The notes under the pieces were generated by a model. The model was not told the origin of the DNA. It saw only the letters and a program-made list of their open reading frames with translations, and searched no databases. From assembly GCA_964610875.1 (NCBI GenBank), contig CAZSWP010000013.1, positions 1 to 64,000 on the forward strand: a stretch of DNA of 64,000 bases, written 5' to 3'. The translations under genes and the position numbers were made by a program. The number at the start of each line of letters is the position of its first letter. Positions within the stretch are counted from its first letter, which is position 1. This stretch comes from an uncultured archaeon (GTDB taxonomy: Archaea; Asgardarchaeota; Thorarchaeia; Thorarchaeales; Thorarchaeaceae). Shown piece by piece: positions 1,514 through 36,205 of the stretch.

Positions 1514-1924
1514 GTGAGTGAACCGACGTTAGAGGAGGCTAAGGAACTATTCATCCCCTTTTTAGAGAAGGACTGGATTGAGATTTTCAGATATTTCTTG
1601 GTTCAAGAGAAGATGCAGATAGTTGGTGGTTGTGGTCTAGCATTCAGGCAAATGATTCCTTCGCGATATTGTCCTACGGGACGGAATGGATACATCTGGA
1701 ATATGTATGTGGAACGGTCTCACCGAAAAAGAGGCATTGGTGGAAAACTTGTAAAGCATGTACTTGATTATTGTAAGAAGGAGGGCATTTTTCTTGTGGA
1801 GTTGCACACATCTGGGATGGGAAAATCAGTTTATGAAAAGCAGGGTTTCTTGCCACTTGAGAATTATTTGGCTTTGTTCCTCTTCAAACCGAGTGAAAAA
1901 AGAAGAATAGCAAATAGAGAATGA
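1514..1924 (+). CDS. GNAT family N-acetyltransferase
   Basis: Motif A NMYVERSHRKRGIGGKL; C-terminal YEKQGF. Confidence 0.85.
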   Translation: MSEPTLEEAKELFIPFLEKDWIEIFRYFLVQEKMQIVGGCGLAFRQMIPSRYCPTGRNGYIWNMYVERSHRKRGIGGKLVKHVLDYCKKEGIFLVELHTSGMGKSVYEKQGFLPLENYLALFLFKPSEKRRIANRE

Positions 1925-1937
1925 GGATTTATCAACT

Positions 1938-2156
1938 TCAGATCTCGAGCTCATCCTCTGTAAGGCCCTTATCTTTCACACACTGTGGACAGATTTGCTC
2001 GTAGTCAGATGTCATTCTGTGACAGTCTGAACATGTTTTTCGACCACACCATTCACACACAAAGAGCAGGTTTCCATCACTCGCATCACTCCCACAATTT
2101 GAACATTTTTCATCGCTGATTGGCATGATACTCACCGGATTTACATTATCTGTCAT
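1938..2156 (-). CDS. Small Cys-rich zinc-finger protein
   Basis: Four CxxC pairs in 72 aa. Confidence 0.6.
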   Translation of the reverse strand: MTDNVNPVSIMPISDEKCSNCGSDASDGNLLFVCEWCGRKTCSDCHRMTSDYEQICPQCVKDKGLTEDELEI

Positions 2157-2321
2157 CTATCTAATATGTCGGTAGAGAGAAACAGATTGTATTCATAGTT
2201 GCATAAATAGATTCTCTGAGGGATAGAAATCAACACTTCAAGCATATACTCAACAGAAGAAAAGAACCTGTTTTATTTATGCAAACCTCAAAATTTCAGA
2301 GTCACGGGGAAAAACAAAGTG

Positions 2322-2349
2322 AAAAATGACTGACCAGTCTGGCCAGTCA
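2322..2349 (-). terminator. Hairpin plus T-tract after the r-protein operon
   Basis: Imperfect inverted repeat TGACTGACCAG-T-CTGGCCAGTCA followed by T5 on the minus strand, just after the uL15 stop. Confidence 0.55.
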
Positions 2350-2359
2350 AAGTAATGTT

Positions 2360-2809
2360 CTATTCTTCAGGTAGGTCGATAGTGCCACCGGCTTCAGTGA
2401 CTTTCTTACGGGCACTTGCGGTGATAGCTTTGACACCAGTGAGGTCCAGCTTTCTCTCAACTCGACCGCCACCAAGAAGCTTGTCAACCTCAAGTTTTGA
2501 GACATCAATAACATAGCGCTTTCCCTTGGCGGTTGCAAGACCCTTCTCAACGAGTTTGTCAGCATCCATGTCCAATTCACTGACATTTATTGCAATCATC
2601 TCTTCTACTAGTTGTTGAGGTCTCTTGAATCCATGTTTTCCAAAATAGCGTGGATTCTCAATCATAGTCTTGATGTAATGATGCTTCTTTGTGCCAGCTT
2701 TTCCAACACCGCCTCTCTGTCCAGAGGCACGATGTCCTGCACTGAACCCATAGCCTGCGGCTCTGCGACCTCTCATTTTATGGATCTTCTTTGATTTTCT
2801 CTTTTGCAT
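2360..2809 (-). CDS. rpl15: 50S ribosomal protein uL15
   Basis: RGRRAAGYG...GQRGGVGKAGTKKH...FGKHGF; operon position. Confidence 0.95.
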   Translation of the reverse strand: MQKRKSKKIHKMRGRRAAGYGFSAGHRASGQRGGVGKAGTKKHHYIKTMIENPRYFGKHGFKRPQQLVEEMIAINVSELDMDADKLVEKGLATAKGKRYVIDVSKLEVDKLLGGGRVERKLDLTGVKAITASARKKVTEAGGTIDLPEE

Positions 2810-2826
2810 AATTGGTCACTCCAAAT

Positions 2827-3366
2827 TCACGCTTTTTTCAGACGTATCTCTAATACTCCATTTCTAATTGCTGAAGTAGCTTGGTCTTTCTTCACTTTAC
2901 CTGGGAGTTCCAAGATTTTATGATAAGGTCGTTGTGGGTTGTCCACCTTGATTATGAGAGTACTGCCCTTTATTCTGACATTAATCTCGTCTTTACTCAC
3001 GCCAGGGAGCTCTGCTACTACAATTATCTCATCATCTTCTTCAATCACATCAACAAGTGGTTCTAGATGGGGAGTCATCTTGAACTCCTCTTCTCCTGAC
3101 ACATTGCCGAATCGTTGAATGATCGGTTTGCCATCAGGACCTACTCTCATCGAGAACCCAAACACAAAGGGATTCGTGCTCTGTGGGTCCCTCATGAATT
3201 CCTCCATTTTGCTGGGATCGAGCAGTCTACCATCTCGCATCTGCTTCATCATTCGATCCATCATCTCTTCAATGTCTTTGAACATTGATTCAGGAAGGAA
3301 TTCACCAAGCCATTTTCTCAATGCTCGTTCTGCATCATTATCAAACGGGTCTTCGTCCCACGACAC
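2827..3366 (-). CDS. Small heat shock protein Hsp20 (archaeal type)
   Basis: GFSMRVGPDGKPIIQRFGN, EPLVDVIE, AELPGVSK, NGVLEI; GTG start 6 nt after GAGGTG. Confidence 0.92.
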   Translation of the reverse strand: MSWDEDPFDNDAERALRKWLGEFLPESMFKDIEEMMDRMMKQMRDGRLLDPSKMEEFMRDPQSTNPFVFGFSMRVGPDGKPIIQRFGNVSGEEEFKMTPHLEPLVDVIEEDDEIIVVAELPGVSKDEINVRIKGSTLIIKVDNPQRPYHKILELPGKVKKDQATSAIRNGVLEIRLKKA

Positions 3367-3382
3367 GATTTTCACCTCTGGT

Positions 3383-3865
3383 CTATATCATCCTCATAGC
3401 TAGTCCATTGATCTCAGGACCACGGTAGCCCGTAATGCCACCCATGCCAACCGAGTAGTATTTCTTACCTCTGTATCCCTTTTTTGGCGGTGTGAGTCTA
3501 AAGATGGGTTTTAGGCCTTCCACATCTGTTAGATTTCCTTCGCCAGAGTGTACAGCTTTTGCTAATGCCTTGATTGATTTGTATGAGGAGATGCCCTTAA
3601 CATAGCTATCATCCAGTCTTTTGTTGCCGGGTAGACGACCACGTTTCTCTAACAGTTTTAGTACTGTTTCCTCATCTACTTCACCCCAAGTTATGTAATC
3701 CTTTACTTTCTCGATCATGCCTTGAATACTAGGTGTAACCTTGAACACTCTGGCATGATGAAGACGAACCAGTTTCAATTTCTGTAGAGTATCCTCAATC
3801 TGAGGCTTCACTCTAACCCTTCCTCTCACACGGATGGCAAGAATCACTTTCTCATCCTCACTCAT
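3383..3865 (-). CDS. rpl30: 50S ribosomal protein uL30
   Basis: AIRVRG...GMIEKVKDYITWGE...FRLTPPKKG. Confidence 0.95.
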   Translation of the reverse strand: MSEDEKVILAIRVRGRVRVKPQIEDTLQKLKLVRLHHARVFKVTPSIQGMIEKVKDYITWGEVDEETVLKLLEKRGRLPGNKRLDDSYVKGISSYKSIKALAKAVHSGEGNLTDVEGLKPIFRLTPPKKGYRGKKYYSVGMGGITGYRGPEINGLAMRMI

Positions 3866-4533
3866 TCTTCAGGACCTCCCATAATAGCCCATTCATGTGG
3901 TGGAAGCATCCTGTATGTATTGGACAAAGCATCAATGAATGCCTTTGCGAAGTTGGATGATGTTCGAGACCTACCCTTAGTGATTGACCAGACATCATGA
4001 AGTCCTGCAATTCTAAGGACAATCTTTCCAACATCAGCTGTGACCAACCCAGTTCCCTTAGGAGCTGGTTTGAGTGTTACAGATACACTTCCAGCATGAC
4101 CTTTTGTTTGAAATGGAATGCTGTGGGGATCTTGACATCTACACTCCCATGACCCACATCCTCTTCGAAACACTGTGAGATTCATTTTTGCACGTGTTTC
4201 TGCAGACCTTACTGCGGGGACAAACTCAGGAGCTTTTCCAATACCAATTCCGATTATTCCCTCACCATTTCCAACAACAACTGTAATTCTAAAGCTCTTT
4301 TGCTGCCCACTGTCTGATTGACGCTGAACCAGGGTCACATCCACAACCTCTTGTCGGAGATCTGGAAATAGCATGTCGATGATTTCGGGTTCGCGAATCA
4401 CATAGTTGTTCTCAAAGATCTCATTAATACTATTGATGTGACCTTCTTTGACCAGTCGACCAAGGTGTGTCTTGGGAACCCAATCCTGTAGAGGATCGGT
4501 TTCAGTACGGGGTTGCCTTCTTCTTCTACTCAT
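3862..4533 (-). CDS. rps5: 30S ribosomal protein uS5
   Basis: WVPKTHLGRLV, RRGCGSWEC, PAPKGTGLV. Confidence 0.96.
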   Translation of the reverse strand: MSRRRRQPRTETDPLQDWVPKTHLGRLVKEGHINSINEIFENNYVIREPEIIDMLFPDLRQEVVDVTLVQRQSDSGQQKSFRITVVVGNGEGIIGIGIGKAPEFVPAVRSAETRAKMNLTVFRRGCGSWECRCQDPHSIPFQTKGHAGSVSVTLKPAPKGTGLVTADVGKIVLRIAGLHDVWSITKGRSRTSSNFAKAFIDALSNTYRMLPPHEWAIMGGPEE

Positions 4534-4543
4534 CCTGATTCAC

Positions 4544-5293
4544 CTACTTTTTCTTCTTCTTTCCTTTTCCTCGAGCTATCAGCTTCTTCGGCTTTGGCTT
4601 TCCAGGTTTTGCGCGAGGCGGCTTTTGCTTAGGCTTATCCTTCTTGGGTTTCTTTTCCTTCTTAGGAGTAGCCTTTGGTTTAGTCTTAGTCGACTTCTTC
4701 TTCAACTCAGTAGCAGGGATAGCTTCGATTGCCTTCTTAACAGTAGCAAATTTCTTTGGAATTCCTGTCAGAGTCGTTTTCTTCTTCCCAAGCTCAGAGA
4801 ACATAATTTTTTCATCTTTCTTGGATTCGACATATTCATAGCTCTTCATTATATGATTGCCAGTAATTCGCTCCTCTTCTGGCAGTACTTCTGGACCGTG
4901 TGGTACTTCAATCCCAGCATCTAGAACTCCCTTGAGGGTAGAGTAGATTCTGGAGCCAGGAATAGGAGGATGCAGTCCAATATCTAGCACGGCATTCTTA
5001 ATACCTCGTGCTTTTGCTCTCGAGCCAGCTAACAATCCAGTGAGATAAGCTGCGGGTATATTGTTTTTCCCTGCAACCCATCCATGAGTAGCAAGCTCAC
5101 TAGATATTGCAGAGGCAACTGTTTCATCGCCTTCGACTTTTGCTTTGATGACCTGTACAATGATCTGAGTGTTGGTCTTTCTGACCACCAGACGCGGACG
5201 TCTGGAGAGTAGCAATCGGCGACGTCTATAGTAGTTTGTTTTTCCTTCTCGACGTCTTCTGAATTTAACACGGTATGTTGGGCCTTGTGCCAT
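4544..5293 (-). CDS. rpl18: 50S ribosomal protein uL18 with Lys/Pro-rich C-terminal tail
   Basis: [27 protein letters not shown]. Confidence 0.96.
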
Positions 5294-22405: not shown

Positions 22406-23656
22406 TCAATACATAAGCAGAAAGACACTATATACTAGAATTTGGCATATAGTCAAAGGAATACCAATCTTTGCGAATTCTGTGAAAGAAATTGTTTCAT
22501 CAAATTTTTCTGCGTTCTGAATTATGATTACATTACTCGCTGCTCCTAGTATCAGTAAATTTCCAGCAATAGTACTTCCTGCAGCTAGAGTGACTAGTTG
22601 TATTGTAGATGCACTCGTACTGGTAAAGATAGGGAGGTAGAGAGCCACTAAAGGTACGTTTGATATGAACTGACTAAGAACTACGCTTAGGACCATTATT
22701 GCTGGGATTGATGTCAAATCAAGTGGAACCAAACTAATCATATCTTGAAACACGCCACTGTTCCATACGCTAGCCATAAGAACGAACATAGCTACAAAAA
22801 ACACAAGCGTCTTCCAATCGATATTGCGGAGAATTTCAGTTCTACGACTACTTAGAAGTACTACAGGTGCAGCCCCAACTACAGCTATGTAGGTCATTCT
22901 GAAATCAAATCGAGGGAAGAAGAACAACAAAAGAATCTTCAGAATAATCATAATTAGAACCAGAAGCAATGCTAGCTGAACAATTTTCATTAGTTTCCGA
23001 TCATATCCATCATTTGCAGTATCAGGTTGAATAGATTTTTTGAATTCGGATTTATATAATAAACGCAAGAAGAGAAAGGAAAGGCCCATGCATAGAAGTG
23101 TAGGAATAAAGAGGAATTGGATGAAGATAAGGAATGGATTCTCAATATTTCCTTCAGTGACAATAAGTAAGTTCTGAGGGTTTCCTATCGGACTGAGCAC
23201 GCTTCCAGTAGTTACACCGATGGCTAGTGTCAGTAGTAGCATTCGAGGGGAAATATCGTGTGTCTTTGCAAGGCGTATAACCACGGGAGTACCAATTATT
23301 GCAATTGTATCATTCATTAGAATTGCTGACATAAACCCAGAAACTAAAAGAACTAGCAAAACAAGTTGATCTACACCTCTTGCTTTTCCAAAAATATTCC
23401 TGGAGAGTGATTGCAAATAACCACTTCTCACTGCTGCTTCCCCGATAATGAACATACCAAAGAGAAATATTATGACATCCAAGTTTACAGAAATTACCGC
23501 ATCAATGACGTTGATTTGACCTGTGATGAGAACAATCAGAGCTCCTATTACCATTGCTTGCCATATCTCAACTCTGAAACGTCCAATCTTTCTGACTGCG
23601 ATTAAAACAAAGACAAGGCTTAATACTAATAACGAAATAACTCCGATAGTCTGCAT
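22406..23656 (-). CDS. ArsB/NhaD/SLC13-type anion permease
   Basis: SAILMNDT, SPIGNPQNL, QFISNVP, AGNLLILGAASNVII. Confidence 0.9.
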   Translation of the reverse strand: MQTIGVISLLVLSLVFVLIAVRKIGRFRVEIWQAMVIGALIVLITGQINVIDAVISVNLDVIIFLFGMFIIGEAAVRSGYLQSLSRNIFGKARGVDQLVLLVLLVSGFMSAILMNDTIAIIGTPVVIRLAKTHDISPRMLLLTLAIGVTTGSVLSPIGNPQNLLIVTEGNIENPFLIFIQFLFIPTLLCMGLSFLFLRLLYKSEFKKSIQPDTANDGYDRKLMKIVQLALLLVLIMIILKILLLFFFPRFDFRMTYIAVVGAAPVVLLSSRRTEILRNIDWKTLVFFVAMFVLMASVWNSGVFQDMISLVPLDLTSIPAIMVLSVVLSQFISNVPLVALYLPIFTSTSASTIQLVTLAAGSTIAGNLLILGAASNVIIIQNAEKFDETISFTEFAKIGIPLTICQILVYSVFLLMY

Positions 23657-23698
23657 CTAAACTATGTGACCTCAATACATTTTGATATTCGATGACTT

Positions 23699-23950
23699 TT
23701 ATCTTGCATCATATGACTTCATTAGGTAGATAACGATAGCAAATGTTTTCGTGTTTTGAAGACTATCGAAATATCTTGACAAAACCCAAGGTATCTTTAG
23801 AACTGCAATAGTTGCAATCATCAGCAAACCTATTCCAAATAGCAACCCACCAAACAAGTACACAAAGAAACCTATGAAAATTAAAACAATGCTGATGATC
23901 AATAAAACAAAGAGTGGATCCCTCTTCAATTCTTCAAATGAAGACTCCAT
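23699..23950 (-). CDS. Small membrane protein
   Basis: Two hydrophobic segments; SD-like GTGA. Confidence 0.5.
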   Translation of the reverse strand: MESSFEELKRDPLFVLLIISIVLIFIGFFVYLFGGLLFGIGLLMIATIAVLKIPWVLSRYFDSLQNTKTFAIVIYLMKSYDAR

Positions 23951-24047
23951 AAATCATCACAACCATATAGCACTCTTCACTGGATTCTTAAAATTGTTCT
24001 CTTGAAAAGAGTTGAAGTGAACAAAATTTGGATTGTGTAGGTCCTGT

Positions 24048-24542
24048 TCATTGTGTACCAATTTTCTTCATTAGGTCCAGAACATCTTCATCTACTACCT
24101 TCAGCTCAATCATTTTGTTTGATTCAATATCAAAGACTCTAATATTGTATTGAATTCCAGCGTCCTGATGGTCTTCTTTTATCTGGAGAAACTCAGTATG
24201 AGGTTTACCTTTGAATAATTCAAGAGAAATCTCTTCTTGGATTTCGCCGCTACGGACCTCTAAAAGTCGAGATGTTGTGAGATAGTATTTTGTTCTTCTG
24301 ATTTTAATGAAACTGTATACTGTGTATAGAATACCAATTAGCACAAAGAATACTAATCCAAATACGATAGATGCACCATAAATACTCCCTGTAAAAATGA
24401 TCACAAAAACAGATAGAAGGGGAAAGCATACTCCACAGAAAATGAACAAAAAGGGAGTACCGGCCCTTTGATGCCAAACAATCTCTTCACCTGGTTTTAG
24501 TCCATACTCTGGTGGTTCAAATCGCTCCTTTTCCACATACAT
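24048..24542 (-). CDS. Membrane protein with bacterial PH-like domain
   Basis: LKPGEEIVW, two TM helices, YYLTTSRLL. Confidence 0.65.
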   Translation of the reverse strand: MYVEKERFEPPEYGLKPGEEIVWHQRAGTPFLFIFCGVCFPLLSVFVIIFTGSIYGASIVFGLVFFVLIGILYTVYSFIKIRRTKYYLTTSRLLEVRSGEIQEEISLELFKGKPHTEFLQIKEDHQDAGIQYNIRVFDIESNKMIELKVVDEDVLDLMKKIGTQ

Positions 24543-24686
24543 AATAGTGATACCTCCACTATGGGGAGTTAAATGAGGATTTGAATCTTCTTAACAACAA
24601 AACTCCTTCGGAAAATCGAGAACCCGTTGCTTTCATTGGAAAGCTTATTTTTCTTTCATAATACATGATGGTGGAGTTTCATATAG

Positions 24687-25154
24687 TTGTCAAAATTCAA
24701 AGACCTATCAAGACCAGTTATTGCATCTTTCATAACACTACTTGGAGTTATTTTTCTCCCATATGCCTATCAACAAACATGGGGACTGGGTTCTGCGAAC
24801 CACATAATTCGATGGCCACTTTGGATTTTCCTCGATTCGTTCTATTTCTCAGGTTTCACACTAATTGAATTACAAGAGTTTCTGAGTTTTACACCAGCGT
24901 GGATCATGAGGTTTTTACTTGTCTTTTGGGTCAGCAGATATTATTCTGGTAGATCCTCACGAAGACAGACATTTGCAATAGGAATGATATCCGAGTTACC
25001 ACCTCTGTTACTTTCGCTATCTGAAATCATTGCAAACAGCATGCAGCCCCCAACATTTTCTTCTGTACTATTACCTATACCTGTACTTCTTGGCTTTGTG
25101 GTTCTACTTATCTTTCTCCTACCGTACGACCCATCCAAAGAACCTTGGAAGTGA
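24687..25154 (+). CDS. Hypothetical membrane protein
   Basis: About four hydrophobic segments. Confidence 0.6.
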   Translation: MSKFKDLSRPVIASFITLLGVIFLPYAYQQTWGLGSANHIIRWPLWIFLDSFYFSGFTLIELQEFLSFTPAWIMRFLLVFWVSRYYSGRSSRRQTFAIGMISELPPLLLSLSEIIANSMQPPTFSSVLLPIPVLLGFVVLLIFLLPYDPSKEPWK

Positions 25155-25290
25155 ATATTCATCCTAGATTATTTACTCTCATTTTAGTGGTAAACTGTTC
25201 AATATCATTAAAACGAATTATTGCACGAAGGTGTGGTCCAAAGTAACGAGTATTGGTAGAAAATCAAGACAAGTGAGAATATCGGTTTGA

Positions 25291-25407
25291 GAAAATGAGA
25301 GTTAGAAGGAAGGGTTTGCACCCATCCTTCTGAAACTATAGGTATACACTCTAGATACAGCGATGGATTACTTCCGGTCCCGCTTCTTCGAACTCCTTGC
25401 GTGAAAC
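25291..25407 (-). repeat. Copy 1 of actin 3' end plus 3'-UTR hairpin
   Basis: Minus strand 25407-25351 reads [18 protein letters not shown], followed by a GCAA-loop hairpin and T-rich tail. Confidence 0.93.
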
Positions 25408-25537
25408 CTGAATCCTTCCAAAAAAGTGCGAAAGATGAAGAGAGAAATACCTAATTTCGAGTCACTCGAATAATCTCAAGAGAATTATAAGCGGATGGTG
25501 CATTAACACAGTTAGTATATTCTGAGAGGGATATGAT

Positions 25538-25957
25538 ATGGATGTTGATGATGTTATCTCAAAGGTTCGTAGTTTCGTCAAGAAACAAGATAGTGTCATT
25601 GCAGCATATCTTTTTGGCTCACTTGCAAGAGGTACAGATAATCCAATGAGTGATATCGATATTGCATTACTACTTACAGAAACAGAAAATGTTATTCCCA
25701 GAATTAAGGAGTTCACTGTCACACTCGCAAATATCATAGACACTTCAAATTTGGACCTCATCAGCCTCAAACATGCAGACCTGGCTTTGAAATACAATGT
25801 CATTCGAGAGGGGATTCTTATCTATGAGAGTGATCCAGTTGAGAGGATTGCTTTTGAACGAAGGACAACCACAGAGTATCTGGATATGCTTCCAGTATGG
25901 AGAGAGTATGATGAACATATGAAATCCAGACTTCAGGAGTATGCAGCAAGTGATTGA
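25538..25957 (+). CDS. MNT (minimal nucleotidyltransferase) antitoxin
   Basis: YLFGSLARG, SDIDIA. Confidence 0.92.
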   Translation: MDVDDVISKVRSFVKKQDSVIAAYLFGSLARGTDNPMSDIDIALLLTETENVIPRIKEFTVTLANIIDTSNLDLISLKHADLALKYNVIREGILIYESDPVERIAFERRTTTEYLDMLPVWREYDEHMKSRLQEYAASD

Positions 25958-26363
25958 TAGTGATACAATATATTCTAGACTCTCTACTATTGAACAATGT
26001 ATGAGAGTGATTGAAAGAACAAAGGAAAAGGGACTTCAACACTACCTCAAAGACTTGGACACCAGATTTCTGACTGAAAGAGCACTACACTTAGCCATTG
26101 AAGCGAGTATAGACATTGCTAATCATATCATTTCAAATCATGGGTTTCGCAGACCAAAAGACTATGCAGATATTTTTCAGATCCTTGGTGAGGAAAAAAT
26201 CATTACTGAAGACTTAAGCGAGCGCCTAATTCATATGACAAGGTTTCGAACCAGATTAGTACATCTTTATTCAACGCTGGACAATGAGATTGTGTTCAGC
26301 ATCTTAGAGAACGAAATATCTGATATTCTTGAATTTACAGCTGTTGTTTCAGAGATGTTGTGA
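25941..26363 (+). CDS. HEPN/DUF86 RNase toxin
   Basis: ERALHLAIEASIDIANHII, FRTRLVHLY (Rx4H); overlaps the MNT gene. Confidence 0.92.
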   Translation: MQQVIDSDTIYSRLSTIEQCMRVIERTKEKGLQHYLKDLDTRFLTERALHLAIEASIDIANHIISNHGFRRPKDYADIFQILGEEKIITEDLSERLIHMTRFRTRLVHLYSTLDNEIVFSILENEISDILEFTAVVSEML

Positions 26364-26409
26364 CTACACAGATTTCTGGGTTTCTATTGTTTCCAATCAA
26401 AGTTAAAAT

Positions 26410-26534
26410 AAAATGAGATTTAGAAGGAAGGGCTTGCACCCATCCTTCTGAAACTATAGGTATACGCTCTAGATACACCGGTGGATGACCTCGGGGCCAG
26501 CCTCTTCGAACTCCTTGCGTGAAACCCACATCTT
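26410..26534 (-). repeat. Copy 2 of actin 3' end plus 3'-UTR hairpin
   Basis: Minus strand 26534-26469 reads [21 protein letters not shown]. Confidence 0.94.
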
Positions 26535-27444
26535 ATCCTTTCTTCTTCAATATCACAAACCCAATGATTACTATAGCTACTATTACTATACCGATGCCAA
26601 GGATTACAATAGTATTGTCCACGAGTGGATATGCAGGGGGAACTGCAGATAGTAATTGTATCAGTTCTCCAGTCTGGGATATTGAAGCTACAAGGGTCGA
26701 TTGTATTTTGACATATTCCCAATCATTTGGATTTGCTGTTGATGACACTCTTACAGTTAGATTCGCATAAGTAAGGAACTCCCAATGCGGTTCAATCAAC
26801 ATTGAATCTGCTTGTTGATTTGTGAAAATCGAATGAACAGGACTATTCCCATAATAGAACGAATAGCCAGTTTCGTCATATGACCATAGCACGAACTTCA
26901 GAGCTGAATAGCCTTCTGAAATTGGAACTTGGAGATTAGCTAATTCCAAATCACGTTCTTCGGTTTCATTACACAGAGTGGAGATTGCATTCTTCAATGA
27001 GGCTACATAAGAATATTCAGTGATATTATCAATTGAAGTGATTGAAATAATGTTCATAATATTCGTTGAATCATATGTTAAATTATATGTACATCGAATT
27101 GTGGAGTGCATATAGTGACTTTCATTCAAAGCCATAACTATGACTTGATCACCATAAGCAGTTCGATCAATAAAAAGTAATGAATCATTATACCGACTCA
27201 TCAGATTCCTTACAGTTGTATTTGATAATAGACCTGAGTGAAACTCTAACGCTTGATTCCAAACATCTTCACCAAGAAGTAGCACTTCCTGGTCTCCAAC
27301 ATCTAGTATGAAATCGTTTGTACCGTCAGAAAGTATTGTACTTCCCCTGACCATAGTAAAACCTTCAAACGATATACATCTAGGTATTGAGTAGCCAGAT
27401 ATCATTAGAAGTAATAGAATTCCAATAATGTATGATTTCTTCAT
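26533..27444 (-). CDS. Secreted protein with C-terminal TM anchor
   Basis: Signal peptide; C-terminal hydrophobic helix followed by KKKG. Confidence 0.75.
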   Translation of the reverse strand: MKKSYIIGILLLLMISGYSIPRCISFEGFTMVRGSTILSDGTNDFILDVGDQEVLLLGEDVWNQALEFHSGLLSNTTVRNLMSRYNDSLLFIDRTAYGDQVIVMALNESHYMHSTIRCTYNLTYDSTNIMNIISITSIDNITEYSYVASLKNAISTLCNETEERDLELANLQVPISEGYSALKFVLWSYDETGYSFYYGNSPVHSIFTNQQADSMLIEPHWEFLTYANLTVRVSSTANPNDWEYVKIQSTLVASISQTGELIQLLSAVPPAYPLVDNTIVILGIGIVIVAIVIIGFVILKKKG

Positions 27445-27456
27445 ATAATCATCTCC

Positions 27457-28779
27457 TCAGTAATTGTTAGGACCATCATAGTCTGCAAAGTAATACCAAT
27501 CCAAATGATAATGCAATTTTCCATTTACAGTGTTACCATCGTAAGGTCCCCAATCCCCTTTTCCATCGTCGCCACAAGAATATATTCTCAACCAATCGAA
27601 TGTGACTAAATAATTGGCGGAATAGTACCATGGTGCATTGAATAAATCCATTGTTGCATCACAGTGAATCCAAGTTCCACTTACATAGGTTTCACACCAA
27701 GCGTGACTGAAAGTACCACCCAACCAATTCCCATCATATCCTATCATAAACCTACAAGGAATATTCAGAACTCTGAGAAATGAACACATAACAACAGCAA
27801 ACTCGTCACATACACCCCTCCAATTGTAGTTGTACGTAAACATATCAGCATTAGTGGTTTCATGCGTATCACTGTTCATATAATATGTAATCAGACTATT
27901 AACAGCAGACGTTAGTACCTCACTAGAATATTCAGGATAGCTAATACAGTTATCTACTAAATACGCTGCTTGGTATATAATAGGCCATTCTGTAGGCCTA
28001 AATAATGCACGTGTGATTGGAATACCAAATCCATCTCCTGAATTACCCTCCCAATAGTAATTAGGATTTTGTGAAAGAGAACTCATATCGTCATTTGGGG
28101 GCAGTCCACCATATGTCTGAAGGTCTGATAAACCATATCGAGAAATGAATTCGTATCCCCATGTTTGACTTCTGTATACACTATCATAGCGTAGAGTTCC
28201 CGGAGCTGTTCTTAGACCATCTGGTTCAATAGAATCTGGAGTAACCCCATCATAATAATATGCTTTTCCAGACACTGATACTTGAGCCCTTTTTAAACCG
28301 ACAGTCGCGGTTGAGGGCAAATAGCAAGAGAGTGTATTTACACTACTGTAGCCAGATGCTCTTACTGACTTGGTTTTATAGACTTCTCGAATTTCCGAAG
28401 GGCCAGGACAATTGTCATAGCCTTCGAATACTAGGGTCACATCTGCGTAAATGTATCCTGAAAGATATACCGTAAATTGGACATTGAAATTCTCAGTTCT
28501 TGTCCATAAGCTGGGAATGGACGCGGATATTTGGAAACTACGTCCAAAGCTGTTAATAGCATCCCCTTCACTATGTTGATTACTTGTTTTTTCCGAGTAG
28601 AAAAAACCATTCTGATCCTGCTTAACTTTAGGTATATGTTTAATCGAAGGAATTGATTTTCCCAACTCATTTGATTCAACAAGTGATTTAGGATTTTTCG
28701 GAGGCATAGTGATTGGTGATAATAGCAACGTACCACCTATCAACATGAAAATCAATATTGACTTAGCTCTATTTTCCAT
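27457..28779 (-). CDS. Secreted transglutaminase-like (Cys-His-Asp) protein
   Basis: GVCDEFA...LRVLNIPCRFMIG, HAWCETY, WIHCDAT; signal peptide. Confidence 0.85.
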   Translation of the reverse strand: MENRAKSILIFMLIGGTLLLSPITMPPKNPKSLVESNELGKSIPSIKHIPKVKQDQNGFFYSEKTSNQHSEGDAINSFGRSFQISASIPSLWTRTENFNVQFTVYLSGYIYADVTLVFEGYDNCPGPSEIREVYKTKSVRASGYSSVNTLSCYLPSTATVGLKRAQVSVSGKAYYYDGVTPDSIEPDGLRTAPGTLRYDSVYRSQTWGYEFISRYGLSDLQTYGGLPPNDDMSSLSQNPNYYWEGNSGDGFGIPITRALFRPTEWPIIYQAAYLVDNCISYPEYSSEVLTSAVNSLITYYMNSDTHETTNADMFTYNYNWRGVCDEFAVVMCSFLRVLNIPCRFMIGYDGNWLGGTFSHAWCETYVSGTWIHCDATMDLFNAPWYYSANYLVTFDWLRIYSCGDDGKGDWGPYDGNTVNGKLHYHLDWYYFADYDGPNNY

Positions 28780-29072
28780 TTGTTTTTTCCCACTACTACA
28801 ATTCTAGACATTGTGTAGTAAGGAAAAAACTCGATTTTGGCTATTAAAGAGTTCACTCTTTCAAAATAGTCTTTTGAATGCAAATCTGTCATTCTTACGA
28901 CTTACTTTTTATTCAGATTCTATTTTCTCTTATAATGTTACATCAGGAATATATGTTACTAAACATTTGGCCAGATGCTTTGTTTTACTCAGGTATGGCA
29001 ATTTGAAAATCTTGCAATATATTGATTCAAGATGAATGTATGAAAAGGAAGGATTACTATTTTTTCTTAGAA

Positions 29073-29180
29073 GAAAATGAGAGTTAGAAGGAAGGGTTTG
29101 CACCCATCCTTCTGAAACTATAGGTATACGCTCTAGATACAGCGATGGATTACTTCCGGTCCCGCTTCTTCGAACTCCTT
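29073..29180 (-). repeat. Copy 3 of actin 3' end plus 3'-UTR hairpin
   Basis: Minus strand 29180-29133 reads [15 protein letters not shown]. Confidence 0.92.
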
Positions 29181-29225
29181 TGATAAAATCCATTAGAAGA
29201 GATTGAATATTTCGGAAATACAATT

Positions 29226-31976
29226 TCAGTAGTATTCTTCATTTTTGATTTCCAGATATTCTCTAGTAGAAGTTGGTAGCTGAACAATATAACTGGATGG
29301 CATGTGTTCTTTTATGATTCTCATCAATTGTGAGAATTCTAAAGGATCCATTTCTTCATCAACTTTCATTTTCAAAAACTGCAATAAAGAATCCAATAAC
29401 TGATCATCTATAAAAAAGGGTTCAATAGATAACATAATTTCGATTTCTTCATTTTTTGTTTTTGATGACTGTAGTTTTGAAATATATTCATCTCTTTTTG
29501 AAAGGATGGCATCTCGTACTTTTCGTGATTGATAGAGATGGGGAAAAGATACCAATTGCTTTATTGGGTTGGTATGCTTTATTGGTTTGAGAATCAAACT
29601 CTCAACATTGTCGATTACCCTCTTATCTCTACTAGCATGTTTTAAGGAACATTCAAAGGATTTGTGAATAATCCAATCAGTGGCATCAACAACGACATTT
29701 TCAAATACGATTTTCTTGAATATTTCTCTAGAATGTCCCGAGAAATGAAATCTATGGTCTATTGTCCCTATTACATCCAATGGGTTTTCTGAGAGTATTA
29801 TTTTTTCAAAGAGTGCCTTCAGGATGGAGGGATGTTCAGTAAGAATTCTAAATTTCGAGATTGTTTCTACCACTCGCCAAAAGTTATCCTCATCTGTAAA
29901 CATAGCAATGATATCTTCTATTCTTTCTACAATAATCTCTATAAGCTCGTATTTTCTCTGAAATTTGGGAATAAACGATATTGCATTTAAAATGGATAAA
30001 TCAATATGACTGTTTTTCAAATACTTAATGAAAACCATATTTAGAAGGTTAACTGTTGTGTTATCTTTTGTTCTAACAAGATTCTCTATTTCATATGTCT
30101 TGATTCGTTCCGAATTATCTCGAAGTGAAAGAGAAATTTCAAGTAGTCTTTTGCTAATGGTAGGTTCATTTTGAGTAGTAATCAATCTTTCTGGACGGTG
30201 AGATGTATTTTTAGTTATTTCTTCCAATTGTTTAGCTATAACTTTACCAGCTTGAAGATGGTCTTTCAAATAGTCACACGCCCTAATTTGCCGCTCAATT
30301 GAATCAAGCGTATACCTCTCTCGAATTAATTTAATTTTAGATGGGAATTGCTCAATGAAGCCATCAATGCGATTCATTAGCCATTGGTTATCATAGAAGT
30401 CTGGTACAGAAACTACTTCTCTGATAAATGAGATGAACTCAACAATATTATCTTTATATACAACTTGCTCTTTTTTTAGTTTCAGTTTGAGAACCAATTC
30501 TCTACGAAAACATACATGGCGCATTACCTGACATATTTTGGATAATGTCCAGTACATCGGATATTTCCTGAAGGAATTAACAACCAAACTGACTACATCC
30601 TCCTTTTTTTCATTGGGAGCAACAGAATAGAGAATATTCGCATATTTTGCTAGGCCCCTCCCTTCATGATACCTATCAATCTGGCACTTGAGTTTTTCAT
30701 AACTTTTTTTTGATTCAGAAAGTATTCCTATATAATATGGGCAAGCATTTACATATTCAAGTAAAGCCTCAGGGTTGACAGAAGTTGTTATGGCTTTAAG
30801 TAACTCATCTTGAGTCAATGTTGCGGATGTGTTTCCTGGAATCAAATGAAGAGCAGTTTCAACAATCATTTGCTCGAAGCTGCTACTAGGAAGATGTCTC
30901 CTATTAGGAGAGGCTTTCGAATCTCTTTTTGTAGCATAAAAAAAGCCATCTAGGAAATTAGATAATCCAGCTGCTGTAATAACATCAGGTCCTTCGGACT
31001 GTTCTGCAACTTTCCATAGAAGCAGAATAGATGCGGCACGTCTTTGCCAGATTTTACTTTTCAGTCCATTTCTAATTCTTTGTATCATAGACGGATTCTC
31101 TATGACCATCTGAACAATCTCATGTATAGCTTCATCTGTAGGCTCATATTTTTCACTATTATCTGTAAGATCAAATCCATACAATGTAAATTTCTTTGCA
31201 ATCCATCTGAGAATTCGCCACACTGGAATGTCTATTTTATGTTTGATTGCATAGAGAATTAGTTCTGCGTGAATCTTATTCGAATTGACTATCTCGATTA
31301 CTGCATTTCTGATTTTGGGACTAACATAATACTGGGCTAGATAACAAGCGCCAGCTGATATTTCTGTATCAGAGTGTTTTATGCAGCGAAGCAATTCATC
31401 TGGACTAATTGGTATCGACAGATTGTCAACCCATTTTTTCATAGCCACATTATTTCCATGGAACGGGTCTCTACAACCATATCTCATTATTTCTTCTATA
31501 GCTTTGCTAGTATTACGTTTTGATTTTAGTAAGATCACCTCTGAACACAAATCATAGTCATCACCCATATTTGACACTGAGTAGTAATCACCTGGATCCT
31601 CACCTAAGCCTTCTAAAACTGCAATGGTTCCTTCGTTCAGTCCACCCCATTCTTTGTATAGATAGTTTTGTAATTTAGGAATCACTTCTTTACCCATAGA
31701 TATTATTCCATTTACAATTCTATCATCAACACAGCTGCCACAATCCCACTTTCTATGAATCCAGTACAACTCTTTCACAAGTTTGTCAAAGGCATCTAAT
31801 CCTTGAAGTTGAACAATAGCTTCTATAGCAAGTTCTACCAAGTCACTATCTCCTGCCCATGGACTAACCCAATCCAGAAGAGATAGAAAACTCTCCATTT
31901 TCGAAACGATTTCAGTTCTATTATATCTGATTGCTATTCTGACAGCAGACTCCAAAGCTTCATAGCTTGTATCCAC
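29226..31976 (-). CDS. Large alpha-helical (HEAT/ARM-like) hypothetical protein
   Basis: 916-aa AT-rich ORF; HEAT-like segments GLKSKIWQRRAASILLL and CIKHSDTEISAGACYL. Confidence 0.6.
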   Translation of the reverse strand: MDTSYEALESAVRIAIRYNRTEIVSKMESFLSLLDWVSPWAGDSDLVELAIEAIVQLQGLDAFDKLVKELYWIHRKWDCGSCVDDRIVNGIISMGKEVIPKLQNYLYKEWGGLNEGTIAVLEGLGEDPGDYYSVSNMGDDYDLCSEVILLKSKRNTSKAIEEIMRYGCRDPFHGNNVAMKKWVDNLSIPISPDELLRCIKHSDTEISAGACYLAQYYVSPKIRNAVIEIVNSNKIHAELILYAIKHKIDIPVWRILRWIAKKFTLYGFDLTDNSEKYEPTDEAIHEIVQMVIENPSMIQRIRNGLKSKIWQRRAASILLLWKVAEQSEGPDVITAAGLSNFLDGFFYATKRDSKASPNRRHLPSSSFEQMIVETALHLIPGNTSATLTQDELLKAITTSVNPEALLEYVNACPYYIGILSESKKSYEKLKCQIDRYHEGRGLAKYANILYSVAPNEKKEDVVSLVVNSFRKYPMYWTLSKICQVMRHVCFRRELVLKLKLKKEQVVYKDNIVEFISFIREVVSVPDFYDNQWLMNRIDGFIEQFPSKIKLIRERYTLDSIERQIRACDYLKDHLQAGKVIAKQLEEITKNTSHRPERLITTQNEPTISKRLLEISLSLRDNSERIKTYEIENLVRTKDNTTVNLLNMVFIKYLKNSHIDLSILNAISFIPKFQRKYELIEIIVERIEDIIAMFTDEDNFWRVVETISKFRILTEHPSILKALFEKIILSENPLDVIGTIDHRFHFSGHSREIFKKIVFENVVVDATDWIIHKSFECSLKHASRDKRVIDNVESLILKPIKHTNPIKQLVSFPHLYQSRKVRDAILSKRDEYISKLQSSKTKNEEIEIMLSIEPFFIDDQLLDSLLQFLKMKVDEEMDPLEFSQLMRIIKEHMPSSYIVQLPTSTREYLEIKNEEYY

Positions 31977-32421
31977 TGTTTATAGAAGTGGAATAATGTT
32001 CAAATCTGATTCAATTGTCAATTATCCAAGAAGAGAGAGTCTTGTCTTGCACCACTGAACCTACACCTTTTCTTATGGTGTGAAAAATAAAATAGAAATA
32101 ATCTGAGCGATGGTTGTAGACATCACCCAGTGACCAAATATTCTGATTGCTTTTCTCTTGCTACCCCTAACCCGTATCTGTCCTATTCCAAACACCTAAC
32201 TCCATTCCACTCCCATGAGAATGGAAGACATAATCTCATATGAAATGATTGATTTCTTTGAATACAGAAACCAGAACTCTTTTCTACTACCACTTAGCTA
32301 AACATTATTGGTTAGGAGTAAGATTCTGGTGTTCCTGGCGTAACAGGGCCACACCTTTAGTCCTTGGTAGGAGATTGCATCCCTTGCTTACTCCCAACAA
32401 TAGCACAAGTGGGTGAGGTCT

Positions 32422-32943
32422 ATGTCCATTGAAGGAATTGATGATAGAGGTTTACTGGTCGAGCCATTAGAGCAGAGCTGGTTCAAGAAATTCATTACAG
32501 TCTGGTCAAATCCGAGCTTTGGACAGGTCTATGTTAACAAGAATAGCATGACTGTAAACATCTATCTCGGATTCAGGATGCTTCAGGGAAAGGTTCTCAT
32601 CTGGTCCGCAAAGCGAAATATCAGATGGGTAACAAAGAAATGGTTCAAGCAAGGACATCAAATGCTTCTTTACAAAAACAAGTCCGTTGTAAAAGCCAAT
32701 CTGATAGTTGAAACTCCAGCAGGAGAGATCATTCCAGATGAGGAGTTCTACAAGATAAGTGATAGAGATTATAGCATCCTTCGTGAGTATTTCAATAGGA
32801 AAGAGGTCAGAGATGAACTGAAAAGATTGGCTGAACAGATTGAGAGTAAGATATACCTGTTCAGGGTTGGAATGCCAGTCGAGTTCATTCTTCCCATTAT
32901 CATTCCAATCATTGTAGTGCTACTGATTATTTTATTTTATTAG
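32422..32943 (+). CDS. Hypothetical protein with C-terminal TM helix
   Basis: SD GGTGAGG before ATG 32422; hydrophobic tail. Confidence 0.6.
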   Translation: MSIEGIDDRGLLVEPLEQSWFKKFITVWSNPSFGQVYVNKNSMTVNIYLGFRMLQGKVLIWSAKRNIRWVTKKWFKQGHQMLLYKNKSVVKANLIVETPAGEIIPDEEFYKISDRDYSILREYFNRKEVRDELKRLAEQIESKIYLFRVGMPVEFILPIIIPIIVVLLIILFY

Positions 32944-33159
32944 TGATACACTAATATCCTGAATGCATCAATTTGTACAAAAAGATACAAGACATTATAT
33001 TGTTTCCGAGTTAATCAATGGTGAGAGGGCAATCTCGTTGGTCTTTCCATATTTTGAAACAAACCTTCCTATGTGTTTCATCAAGGCAATATTAATTGAA
33101 CATCTAGGAGTCTGGGATGGTATAGTAGAATCGAAAAAAGAGTCCATCTGACCTTTTTG

Positions 33160-33348
33160 CTACTCCACCGTAATCTGCACCGTCACACTCCCATCCTTCG
33201 ACGGAATCAACACCATCCGCGTTTCAATGACCGCCCCAGTCCTCACCGCTCGCTCATGCAACGGCTTCGGCACGGTCAGGACTTCCTGATTACCGAGCGT
33301 GAACACGCTCATCACAAAGCTCTTCGTGTTCTCCTTGTGTCGTCCCAT
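33160..33348 (-). CDS. Small protein, possible AbrB/SpoVT-like DNA-binding fold
   Basis: GC-rich 62-aa ORF with GNQEVLTVPKPL. Confidence 0.4.
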   Translation of the reverse strand: MGRHKENTKSFVMSVFTLGNQEVLTVPKPLHERAVRTGAVIETRMVLIPSKDGSVTVQITVE

Positions 33349-33721
33349 GTTCGTCGATAGCTCCTAGACTATACAGGAATCTCCCAGTCAGCAGTGAACC
33401 GATGTCCCTGTGCAATCAGGTTCCGTAACCACTCTAATAAGAACCGATTAAGTGTAGACTTGTTCTTGATGTCAACTGTGTCGGGCGTAGGATAGGAATC
33501 GCCAAGCTGGAGTGCCTTGGCAGACTATTTAAGCCCCACACGAATTACTAAGTAATAAAGAGGTCTCACTGCACGGTCATGTGAATCGCCAAGTTCTATG
33601 CGCTGTGTGGTGGGGCCACCTTCCAGCTATCCATAGAATACTCTTTCTTTTCAAAAAGGCAATGAGAAAAATAGATTGTGAAGGTGAGCCTTGCAGCTCT
33701 ACCTTCTAAACTAACAACCCG

Positions 33722-34891
33722 TTAGATACATCGGTGAATTACTTCAGGTCCAGCTTCCTCAAACTCTTTCCGAGATACCCACATTTACCACGCAGCAACG
33801 GAAATCGGTGCCGCTTTTTGGAACGTTTTCAGCGAAGCTAGAATGCTTCCGCCAATCCAGACAGAGTATTGTCTCTCGGGTGGAGCGATGATGCGTACCT
33901 CGATGTTCTCTGGGACTAGTTCGGTGATCTCCTTATGGAGTCGTTCCTTGAGTCCTGGGAACATGGTTGAACCGCCTGATAGTACAATGTTGGCGTACAG
34001 GTCACGTCGCAAGTCTACATCGCAAGCCTTGATCGACTCGACAATGTGTTCATCCAGTGGGATTGAGTCTAGACCTATTGCGCTTGGGTTGAAGAACAGC
34101 TCGGGTGCTTGGAACCTCTCTGCACCAACAGTGATTACTTCACCGTCTGGTAGCATGTAGGGTTTGTCAACACCAGCCTTGTCGGCCACTGTCCTCTCGC
34201 GCTCTGGGTCAAGAGCAACGTAACAGAGTTTCTCTTTTACATCACGGACAATCTCTTTCTCTGCACCGCTCACGAATGAGTAACCTCTCTGTCTGAGAAG
34301 TCTGCGCAGGTACTCGGTGATGTCACGACCAGCAAGGTCGATTCGTTTGATTGCGTGGTTGATTGAGAAACCTTCGTACACAGGTACAATGTGTGTGACA
34401 CCGTCACCAGAGTCGATGACGAGACCTGTGGTTCTTCCGGATGCGTATAGTGATAGCACAGCCTGTGTTGCGACATAGACGGCAGGTATGCCGAAGTTGT
34501 CGAACATGACAGATGCCATGCGTTCACGATTCTCTCTTGGGTTGTATGGTGCTTCAGTGAGAAGCACGGGGTTCTCGCTGGGATCAACTTTCAAGTCGTT
34601 GTAGAAAGTGTAACTCCAGATTTTTTCGATTGCGTCCCAGTCGTCAATTACACCGTGTGTAATTGGGTAGACGAGTCTGAGCACACCACGGAGGTTGATT
34701 GCCTCTTCACCAATGTAGTAATCCCTTGTGTAGTGATCGACGTCCGTCATAATGGACTCGTATCGTGGATATCCAATTAGTGTAGGCCATACACTTCGTG
34801 GCTGATCTTCACCAGCGTAACCGTTCTTACTCAGGCCAGTACCATTGTCAATGACAATTGGTTTACTGCCCATGTAATCTTCCTCAGCCAT
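33722..34891 (-). CDS. Actin (lokiactin-like), two exons 34891-33816 and 33785-33722; 379 aa spliced
   Basis: [62 protein letters not shown]; C-terminus [20 protein letters not shown] resumes in frame after a 30-nt insert. Confidence 0.96.
33786..33815 (-). other. Putative 30-nt BHB intron in actin mRNA
   Basis: Intron AGCGGCACCGAUUUCCGUUGCUGCGUGGUA; bulges AA|A and UA|A, central helix CCAA/GUGG, inner stem GCGGCA/UGCUGC; removal gives TTC CAA AAA ATG TGG. Confidence 0.82.
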
Positions 34892-35395: not shown

Positions 35396-36205
35396 ATGTT
35401 CAGACTAAGTACAGACGACGTGGTACGCAGAGAGATAGAGAGTGTACGAGCCCGACAGGTCATACTGGACCAATTAGAGGGAGGTCCAAAGACAGGGACT
35501 GAACTGCGAGAAGCCATTCGCAAAGATATGACGGGACAGGTCATTGAGAAGAAAGGTAGACGAGTCAAGGATGAGAAGATTGTTGTTTCAGACCCGAAAC
35601 TCTATCACAACACAAGCCATCTTGAGAAGATGGGTATCATAAAGAGTAGGAGGCAGTCAAGAGAACGCGTCTTCGAACTCACACTTCATTCATACCATCC
35701 TGTGAGACGAGCATTACGCGAGTTGGGAGTGGTTGAAGTAGAAACCCCGGTGGCTTTTGTTGTCAACATGAAGATGCCAGACGACCAGAGACCTTTCGCA
35801 CTCTGGTTGAACAAGACAAAGGCTTTCAAGCCACACAGTCTGATGTTCTTCACCGAGGAACGGGGATGGAAAGGCCAGGTACTGAAGGCCTTTGACAGAT
35901 ATGCCACACGGCCATGGGACATTCACTGGCACAGTATACCCTTGGAGATCACTGGTGCCTATGAGGATGCACAACATGGAAACATCCGAGCAGTCTACGA
36001 ATTCATCCAGGACAGGATAGTAGAGTTGATACCTACACACGATGTGGTCATCGACCTCTCAATGGGTACACCCTTGACCTTGCTGGCAATGGCACGTATT
36101 GCTGAAGAGTACTCACTCAGAGCAGTTCACGTAGAGAACTATGAGGTGGACAAAACCCGCATCATACAGTACTATCCTAGAACCAGCGATACCAATGCGT
36201 GGTAA
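35396..36205 (+). CDS. Winged-HTH plus CARF-like domain protein
   Basis: N-terminal wHTH (ILDQLEGGPKTGTEL...LYHNTSHLEKMGII); C-terminal VVIDLSMGTPLTLLAM resembles CARF motif II. Confidence 0.6.
   Translation: MFRLSTDDVVRREIESVRARQVILDQLEGGPKTGTELREAIRKDMTGQVIEKKGRRVKDEKIVVSDPKLYHNTSHLEKMGIIKSRRQSRERVFELTLHSYHPVRRALRELGVVEVETPVAFVVNMKMPDDQRPFALWLNKTKAFKPHSLMFFTEERGWKGQVLKAFDRYATRPWDIHWHSIPLEITGAYEDAQHGNIRAVYEFIQDRIVELIPTHDVVIDLSMGTPLTLLAMARIAEEYSLRAVHVENYEVDKTRIIQYYPRTSDTNAW

Follow-up and report, generated by a model that had tools for sequence, protein, structure and literature searches.

Partial copies of the actin 3′ end and accessory cassettes in an island behind the actin gene of Thorarchaeota

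The actin island in the window

The actin gene of an uncultured archaeon of the family Thorarchaeaceae is followed by an island of accessory genes that is interrupted by partial copies of the 3′ end of actin. The island lies in the 64-kb stretch analyzed here (positions 1 to 64,000 of contig CAZSWP010000013.1, assembly GCA_964610875.1; hereafter, the window), which belongs to a metagenome-assembled genome (MAG) of 3.75 Mb with 95% completeness. It spans 8.4 kb between actin and a conserved downstream flank, in the order actin, cassette C, copy 3, cassette B, copy 2, cassette A, copy 1, and native flank (Table 1). Each displaced copy is co-oriented with actin and truncated at its 5′ end; a TAGTTT spacer, a hairpin, and a T tract come after its stop codon. 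A homologous hairpin, with varying stems, occurs in the 3′ untranslated region (UTR) of actin in relatives of the family.

The first-pass annotation of this DNA had described three extra repeats in the orientation of actin between 25291 and 33785, coding for its last 18, 21, and 15 residues plus a stop and followed by a hairpin and a T-rich tail. Our results showed the same arrangement. A repeat finder (25285–25410, 26403–26528, and 29067–29192), a self-BLAST of the whole genome, and a profile made from 100 resident actin tails of the family agreed on the three extra units and the resident one. When run over the window, the profile gave exactly four matches, each with E ≤ 1e-25, and the next best had E = 0.75. 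Neither a BLAST search with the unit nor a search for the hairpin motif found a unit away from the actin locus in the 3.75-Mb genome, where actin itself is single-copy.

In the self-BLAST, copies 1 and 3 were 99.1% identical over 109 nt, copies 1 and 2 were 90.6% identical over 117 nt, and copies 2 and 3 were 89.5% identical over 114 nt. Over the 14 codons shared with the resident tail, copies 1, 2, and 3 differed from it at 7, 9, and 7 codons, respectively, always synonymously (23 silent changes and no replacement in the three intact copies); 8 of 42 positions set copy 2 apart from the other two copies. The proposal that all versions encode the same peptide and differ only at silent sites was therefore correct. 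Four versions had been counted; the resident tail exists, but this fourth version is exon 2 of actin (33722–33785), which follows an intron.

The cassettes previously noticed between the repeats (an MNT-HEPN pair, a transglutaminase, and a 916-aa protein) are present as cassettes A, B, and C. MNT-HepT pairs homologous to that of cassette A were found in the actin arrays of two other genomes. The 916-aa protein had homologues in only 2 of 85 family genomes and matched no Pfam family; its HEAT-like signal was weak. PADLOC gave only weak matches to candidate systems for MNT and some of the cargo of relatives, and no tRNA or Rfam family was detected between 22 and 37 kb in the window.

The neighborhood of the island is conserved. 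Upstream of actin there is a divergent gene for a 269-aa winged helix-turn-helix (wHTH) protein (35396–36205, plus strand), which is kept at about 90 related loci with 24%–64% identity. Downstream, a genome of another genus has homologues of the 155-aa and 164-aa proteins directly after actin in the same relative orientation, and the CitMHS gene, which in 13 related loci is 0.6–6.5 kb away from actin, is 10 kb away in this genome. With a conserved wHTH gene on one side and native genes on the other, the 8.4-kb island is an insertion between conserved flanks.

Table 1. Position of the actin exons, tail copies, cassettes, and flank in the window
Feature	Position	Strand	Remarks
Actin exon 1	33816–34891	minus	residues 1 to ~359, ends ...LKTFQ + two bases of Lys; Pfam Actin, 1.4e-122
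Predicted bulge-helix-bulge intron	33786–33815	minus	30 nt, with in-frame stop; boundaries slide 1–2 nt in A run
Actin exon 2	33722–33785	minus	last Lys base, 20 residues, stop
Resident tail unit	33656–33786	minus	profile match
Resident 3′ UTR	33656–33721	minus	TAGTTT-bearing spacer, hairpin 33680–33706, T tract
Cassette C	29182–33655	both	916-aa protein, 176-aa open reading frame (ORF), small ORFs, dispersed repeat
176-aa ORF	32413–32943	plus	cassette C
125-nt dispersed repeat	32270–32394		cassette C
916-aa HEAT-like helical protein	29226–31976	minus	cassette C
Displaced actin tail copy 3	29068–29181	minus	15 codons + stop + hairpin + T tract
Cassette B	26535–29067		transglutaminase-core protein + 303-aa protein
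Transglutaminase-core protein	27457–28779	minus	cassette B
303-aa protein	26533–27444	minus	cassette B; stop codon touches copy 2
Displaced actin tail copy 2	26402–26534	minus	21 codons, from the Lys codon at the intron site
Cassette A	25409–26401		MNT + HepT/HEPN toxin–antitoxin pair
HepT/HEPN RNase	25941–26363	plus	Pfam 1.9e-30
MNT nucleotidyltransferase	25538–25957	plus	Pfam 1.5e-19
Displaced actin tail copy 1	25284–25408	minus	18 codons; most distal, abuts native flank
Native downstream flank	22406–25154		155-aa ORF (plus), 164-aa membrane protein (minus), CitMHS transporter (minus)

Further copies of the dispersed repeat of cassette C occur on contigs C46 (100% identical), C69 (93%), C102, and C84. 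A 79-nt piece that accompanies it (32176–32254) is 16 nt from the repeat here and about 950 nt from it on C46. The repeat matched nothing in Rfam, has a fold z-score of only −1.7, and is possibly a miniature mobile element.

Arrays, cassettes, and displaced copies in the family

The recurrence of the arrangement was surveyed with a degenerate pattern for 14 tail residues in 86 species-level genomes of the family. The pattern was present in 76 of them, and at least 21 genomes, from 7 of 16 genera, had an array of two to five co-oriented copies on the actin contig, spaced 0.3–5 kb apart. The same arrangement was seen on metagenome contigs, and the pooled set from all sources comprised 103 resident and 60 non-redundant displaced copies. 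No plasmid or other lineage appeared among the matches: the 76 in species-representative genomes were all from Thorarchaeota-type MAGs. Contigs frequently end at the actin-tail repeats, as is expected of a strain-variable site.

In this genome the repeats were confined to the actin locus, with none scattered over unlinked loci. The content downstream of actin was highly variable across relatives and the upstream neighbor was conserved; the interval between actin and CitMHS ranged from 0.6 to 10 kb across loci. On both counts the hotspot proposed in the first-pass annotation stands. In one relative (G045:C366; L078:2832–3953), actin is followed after about 1 kb by a second, diverged full-length actin-like gene (373 aa) that has a separate tail, hairpin, and T tract.

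Cassette statistics were obtained from 49 non-redundant cassettes. They had a median length of 913 nt (range 240–4485) and a median coding fraction of 0.80, and most carried a single gene. A median of 49 nt separated the left end of a cassette from a complete ORF, and the corresponding median at the right end was 79 nt. These short gaps beside complete ORFs indicate that the breakpoints avoid genes and that the cassettes are discrete modules, not arbitrary pieces of a donor chromosome. With respect to actin, 50 cassette ORFs were antisense and 21 sense (~70% antisense); behind co-oriented cassette genes, the unit provides a hairpin and T tract 2–44 nt past the stop codon. MNT-HepT pairs occurred in the arrays of three genomes, including this one. 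Other cargo included TPR, serine beta-lactamase-fold, cytidine deaminase, radical-SAM/HD, LRR, methyltransferase, and DUF433 proteins, and many ORFs had no known family.

A cassette coding for a 183-aa protein has the identical right junction (...tcaaaagaaa|GAGTTC) in three genomes. It is the first cassette after actin in two of them and the second in the third, behind a different actin-proximal cassette, which shows that newcomers enter on the actin side.

The other end of the arrays is occupied by old sequence. Of 40 displaced copies with a detectable T run, 27 lost similarity to resident tails 0–9 nt past the first run of at least four Ts. Seven copies could be aligned for about 200 nt or more past the T tract with the flank of the resident tail of another genome. 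Furthermore, in a pair of loci whose actins are 97% identical, one is empty and the other contains a 0.9-kb cassette, a decayed relic, and then the native flank. Copies that continue into native flank, together with this pair, identify the distal-most copy as the old chromosomal end.

Displaced copies decay. In 43 copies that share a locus with a resident tail, the 14 shared codons had 104 synonymous and 62 non-synonymous codon differences, and 27 of the 43 had at least one amino acid or stop change. Silent-only divergence as large as that of the copies in the window cannot be the product of neutral decay in place; these copies probably diverged as working ends of actin, in this or in other lineages, and were displaced recently.

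Coding part and UTR can have different histories. Some neighboring copies have identical coding parts with UTRs that differ by 20%–38%, and elsewhere neighboring copies differ at 19%–21% of coding positions with UTRs differing by only 0%–5%. Decoupling in both directions implies that exchange occurs inside the unit. The core of the hairpin can be hypervariable: in one array (L073 of genome G047, copies at 3442, 5338, and 5880), the outer stem GAAGG/CCTTC and both flanks of the hairpin are conserved, and the inner stem and loop are wholly different yet paired.

The actin intron and the 5′ limit of the displaced copies

As called, the actin ORF covers 33785..34891 on the minus strand and terminates at a TAA that falls within a 30-nt in-frame insert. 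The frame reads ...LKTFQK[AAPISVAAW*], with the insert in brackets, and is followed by the actin tail of exon 2. Its excision restores ...TFQK|MWVSRKEF..., the same as in intronless orthologues, and the actin is 91%–96% identical in amino acids to the single actin of 24 family genomes. A homologous 30-nt insert is present at the same point in four other family genomes, each of another genus (five genera in total), and 16 other actin loci of the family that were read at the 3′ end had an uninterrupted ...TFQK-MWVS... sequence. Among 400 Asgard genomes, the insert pattern matched five, all inside this family.

The insert can be folded as a bulge–helix–bulge (BHB) motif with a 4-bp central helix, 3-nt bulges on opposite strands, and an 8-bp intron stem. 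Three genomes have the central helix CCAG:CUGG with bulges AAU and UGA/UAA; the helix is UCAA:UUGA in a fourth genome and CCAA:GUGG, with one mismatch, in this one. Cuts after the second base of each bulge would release exactly 30 nt and restore Lys-Met. In an alignment of only five sequences, 94% of the cells pair, compared with 31%–48% in slid controls; four intron pairs have compensatory changes on both sides, and none of 500 shuffles attained the covariation score. We therefore consider the insert at 33786–33815 a BHB intron of actin, and its splicing is predicted.

The genome encodes one RtcB and two EndA-domain genes, which are separate (C12:30518–30772 and C3:125936–126193; 193 and 210 aa). 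The two EndA genes suggest a heteromeric splicing endonuclease of the broad-specificity type, which would fit the imperfect BHB of this intron. As a consequence of the intron, automated annotation truncates the actin of these genomes by 20 residues. A hutU-like frame of the window has a second 30-nt insert at 53723–53752 on the plus strand (TAC GGA CAG [insert] ATG ACA GCT GG); its stem is GGUAUUA...UAAUACC and its sequence is unrelated to the actin intron. A full-text literature search returned no published description of an actin-linked island or of an actin intron in Asgard archaea.

The intron site coincides with the 5′ limit of the copies. All 60 displaced copies have staggered starts, with homology to any resident actin beginning 0–22 nt upstream of the GAG of EFEE. 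Four of the 60 start at −21/−22 and none further upstream. Position −21 is in the Lys codon that the intron splits at −20/−19. The longest copies carry AAG for this Lys, as in intronless alleles, and start 2 nt upstream of exon 2, so they are not derived from a cleaved 3′ exon. Arrays occur with both intron-bearing and intronless actin, and the largest intact array that we found is in an intron-bearing genome.

Exon 2 of this genome differs from exon 1 in composition. Its GC content at third codon positions is 0.33 versus 0.51 in exon 1, and among its codons are TTT and CGG, which are absent from exon 1. The resident UTR differs by 37% from those of the three relics, which are nearly identical to each other. 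Together, the atypical codons and the deviating UTR are a weak sign that the last event swapped the whole tail.

Origin of the array and its relation to known systems

We think it rather probable that the array was built by serial recombinational insertion, of the Campbell type, of cassettes without an integrase at the 3′ end of actin. Each cassette would carry at its far end a partial actin tail of up to 21 codons with the stop codon, the hairpin of the 3′ UTR, and the T tract, and this unit would recombine with the resident tail. Such an insertion would leave actin intact and the newcomer next to it, and would shift the previous tail downstream as a 5′-truncated relic. Repeated rounds would build the array, and the relics, not expressed as parts of actin, would decay over time. 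Circular intermediates of the cassettes and a crossover inside the repeat are inferred, and the enzyme would be either a recombinase that works in trans from outside the island or the homologous recombination machinery of the host, which would use the ~105–125 shared nt. This type of insertion accounts for the direct repeats, the preserved actin, the entry on the actin side, the constant junctions, the compact modules, and the mosaic units. The first-pass annotation had also suggested successive insertions, each bringing a functional replacement terminus, and this idea is supported. The copies that continue into the flank and the order of the 183-aa cassette are direct evidence of serial insertion that displaces the old end, and the silent-only differences would fit tails that worked as termini until they were displaced.

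Several observations weigh against this model. It leaves the origin of new cassette-plus-tail modules unexplained, and it does not explain why relics stop at −22 on their 5′ side; their stagger of 0–22 nt is also unlike the fixed identity block of one site-specific integrase. A Pfam search of 28 larger cassette ORFs (from the window and the arrays of nine relatives) detected no recombinase or transposase domain, and a scan of the 86 genomes with PF00589 (Phage_integrase) found no hit beside an array; the nearest, in one genome, was 14 kb away. The absence of an integrase from the island, already noted from the window ORFs in the first reading, thus extends to the arrays of relatives. The sole tyrosine recombinase gene of the genome is on another contig (C52) and is weakly Xer-like. 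The viral contigs of IMG/VR had no match to the tail-coding pattern, and the contigs of three DNA runs contained no excision or deletion joint. All the data are metagenome assemblies, whose contigs often break at the repeats. Two leads of the first reading, actin tails near an integrase in Asgard viruses or plasmids and junctions of excision circles, found no support: there was no IMG/VR match, no plasmid among the 76 matches, and no excision joint in the run contigs.

An MNT gene adjoins the recombinase of C52, and it is just 29% identical to the MNT of the cassette. An Xer-type gene was present in only 29 of the 86 family genomes. A single joint, 25408 to 33819 (depth 185), came from an abundant intronless relative and is not a variant of this genome. 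That relative, a member of the Thorarchaeota in the same mat, has a contig depth of ~185 versus ~5 for this genome (runs X1 and X3); its intronless actin tail is at least 90% identical to copy 1 (25351–25408) and resembles it in the coding part, with other 3′ UTRs. A 17.9-kb contig that ends in a displaced copy (G003:C43) was considered as an intact element and rejected, since it codes for a deaminase, BNR and NosD-like proteins, and unknowns, with nothing that marks an element. A sliding-window nearest-neighbor analysis found no recombination breakpoint in the body of actin, as this genus has no close relative.

The position of the 5′ ends is better accommodated by a site-specific break near the intron site, ~20 nt upstream of EFEE, that is repaired from foreign Thorarchaeota DNA. 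The left end would be anchored by homology in actin, the donor tail and downstream genes would be copied, and the right end would be joined without homology after trimming of 0–22 nt; the intron would destroy the cleavage site and so confer a homing-type immunity. All 60 relics start within these 22 nt, four of them at −21/−22 in the Lys codon split by the intron. Actin DNA, 89%–97% identical within a genus where the flanks are ~80% identical, could serve as the anchor. No recombinase is needed, which fits its absence, and the atypical codons of exon 2 and the deviation of its UTR from those of the relics look like the result of a last event that exchanged the entire tail. However, random donor ends should often cut genes, whereas the cassettes end in spacers of 50–80 nt beside complete ORFs. 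The intron has only 30 nt and no ORF, the arrays occur with both kinds of actin, and we know of no nuclease candidate, so we regard break repair as unlikely. Staggered 5′ ends, and a 3′ boundary that the units share sharply at the T tract, the expected end of transcription, would also be produced if the units were 5′-truncated cDNA made from the 3′ end of actin mRNA, an abundant transcript, and joined to other sequences by template switching of a reverse transcriptase. This is very improbable: cassette genes are mostly antisense (50 vs. 21 ORFs), separated by spacers and sometimes on both strands, and are not copies of one mRNA; the longest relics begin 2 nt upstream of exon 2 with the AAG of intronless genes and do not come from a cleaved 3′ exon; and seven distal relics continue into native genomic flank.

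The identical peptide of the three copies in the window, in spite of seven to nine silent differences each, might instead be due to selection in place, if the copies were alternative spliced 3′ exons, genes for small peptides, or reused terminators. Copy 2 opens with an ATG right after a stop, and the hairpin and T tract lie 2–44 nt past the stop of co-oriented cassette genes. Nevertheless, 27 of 43 displaced copies of relatives have non-synonymous or stop changes, two of the three copies in the window lack the ATG as well as any 3′ half of a BHB, and the 5′ end varies from copy to copy. The units may serve as terminators of neighboring genes, yet this leaves the conserved coding part unexplained, and we give selection in place hardly any credence. 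An assembly artefact, in which co-occurring strains with shared actin-tail k-mers were chained into a false array, seems the least believable explanation, even though the mat holds other Thorarchaeota with similar actin tails, one at ~185x, and many contigs of relatives break at the repeats. Every point at which non-actin sequence meets a truncated tail must be present in real DNA. The same runs, assembled independently, gave a bridge across copy 1, cassette A, and copy 2, with the other cassettes at equal depth, and over 20 MAGs and contigs of many different studies show the architecture, with identical junctions in three genomes.

A broader and doubtful possibility is that actin serves as a platform for cassette capture. 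An enzyme acting in trans, either a recombinase or a site-specific nuclease, would read the Lys-Met-Trp junction and/or the hairpin of the 3′ UTR and would stack promoter-bearing cassettes as in an integron, with the host tail as the recombination site; the intron would persist by splitting that site.

Serial insertion at the actin 3′ end resembles the additive islands at the 3′ end of tRNA genes (archaeal elements of the SSV/pTN3 type and tycheposons). In the tycheposons of Prochlorococcus, newcomers push older elements into the island and leave partial tRNAs (bioRxiv 10.1101/2020.12.28.424599). Restoration of the 3′ part of the target, displacement, partial copies, and the newest element nearest the target are common to both, and direct repeats of the target 3′ part flank each insert at actin, as they do in site-specific elements. 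In contrast, the target here is a protein-coding gene, ~50 cassettes contained no integrase or fragment of one, their size is much smaller (median 0.9 kb), and the partial copies begin at staggered positions instead of forming one identity-block boundary. This genome also has a tRNA version (C3:138300–143900; L227). There, a tRNA gene with ~60 nt of intron sequence, at ~699–838, escaped detection by ARAGORN and Rfam. It is followed by a 4-kb insert that lacks an integrase (a flavodiiron-like gene and unknowns) and is flanked by a 96-nt, 97% identical repeat at 806–901 and 4850–4945, which starts in the T loop of the tRNA.

Integrons and clusters of attC sites lacking integrases (CALINs), also reported in Archaea, have compact, mostly single-gene cassettes separated by imperfect-hairpin units of ~60–140 nt whose stem sequence varies. 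The actin arrays share with them the compact one-ORF cassettes in co-linear order, the hairpin units, toxin–antitoxin cargo, entry next to the platform, and an array without an integrase. They differ in that the array is bounded by the coding tail and terminator of the platform gene itself, 70% of the ORFs are antisense to that gene, and actin heads the array with the wHTH neighbor upstream; we found no intI or attI. The copies that were read (TAGTTTC/TAGTTTA, then GAAGG...CCTTC) had no GTTRRRY box, with no formal attC scan made. Because the defining enzymes of both tRNA-end elements and integrons are absent, we file the locus under neither.

Integrative mobile elements exploiting Xer (IMEX) and the pdif modules of Acinetobacter plasmids also lack an integrase, often carry toxin–antitoxin genes, and use short conserved sites with the host Xer recombinase in trans. 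The dif-like sites keep the sequence of their arms, whereas the actin units keep only the pairing of the hairpin and vary in sequence; moreover, as noted above, an Xer-type gene was found in no more than 29 of the 86 genomes. A structured repeat family of this genome has the core GGTTGCGTGAAGGACCTTACCC... and upstream hairpins with compensatory changes. It has at least 10 copies, many at contig ends, on C44:1–6000 (L226), C63 (L225), C111, C68, and C78, and the copies bound small Fic/DOC and PIN cassettes. It had no Rfam match and possibly represents another type of cassette array.

Randau and Soll reportedly proposed in 2008 that tRNA introns and split tRNA genes guard against integrating elements. 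The actin intron is comparable in that it is at the 5′ edge of the segment duplicated by integrating DNA. Given that the largest array is in an intron-bearing genome, protection by the intron is not evident. The only archaeal mRNA intron of the BHB type returned by our literature searches is that of the cbf5 pre-mRNA in Crenarchaeota (PMC2738675). Both are short, reside in a protein gene, have a BHB fold presumed to be removed by the tRNA endonuclease and ligase, and are patchily distributed; the intron described here differs in its Asgard actin host, its length of only 30 nt, and its position at the edge of a hotspot, and is known from DNA sequence.

Actin, the signature eukaryote-like gene of Asgard archaea, occurs once in this genome. 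The use of its last 20 codons as a preferred landing site for accessory genes throughout the family shows how gene flow is channeled in the closest archaeal relatives of eukaryotes known. The rule that elements integrate at the 3′ end of a tRNA gene and replace that end is thereby extended to a gene that codes for a protein, and no resident integrase appears to be involved. The site is defined, conserved, and addressable by PCR, and would allow the study of recombination, and possibly gene delivery, in organisms without genetic tools. With an intron at its edge, the hotspot offers a way to test on a protein gene whether introns guard integration sites.

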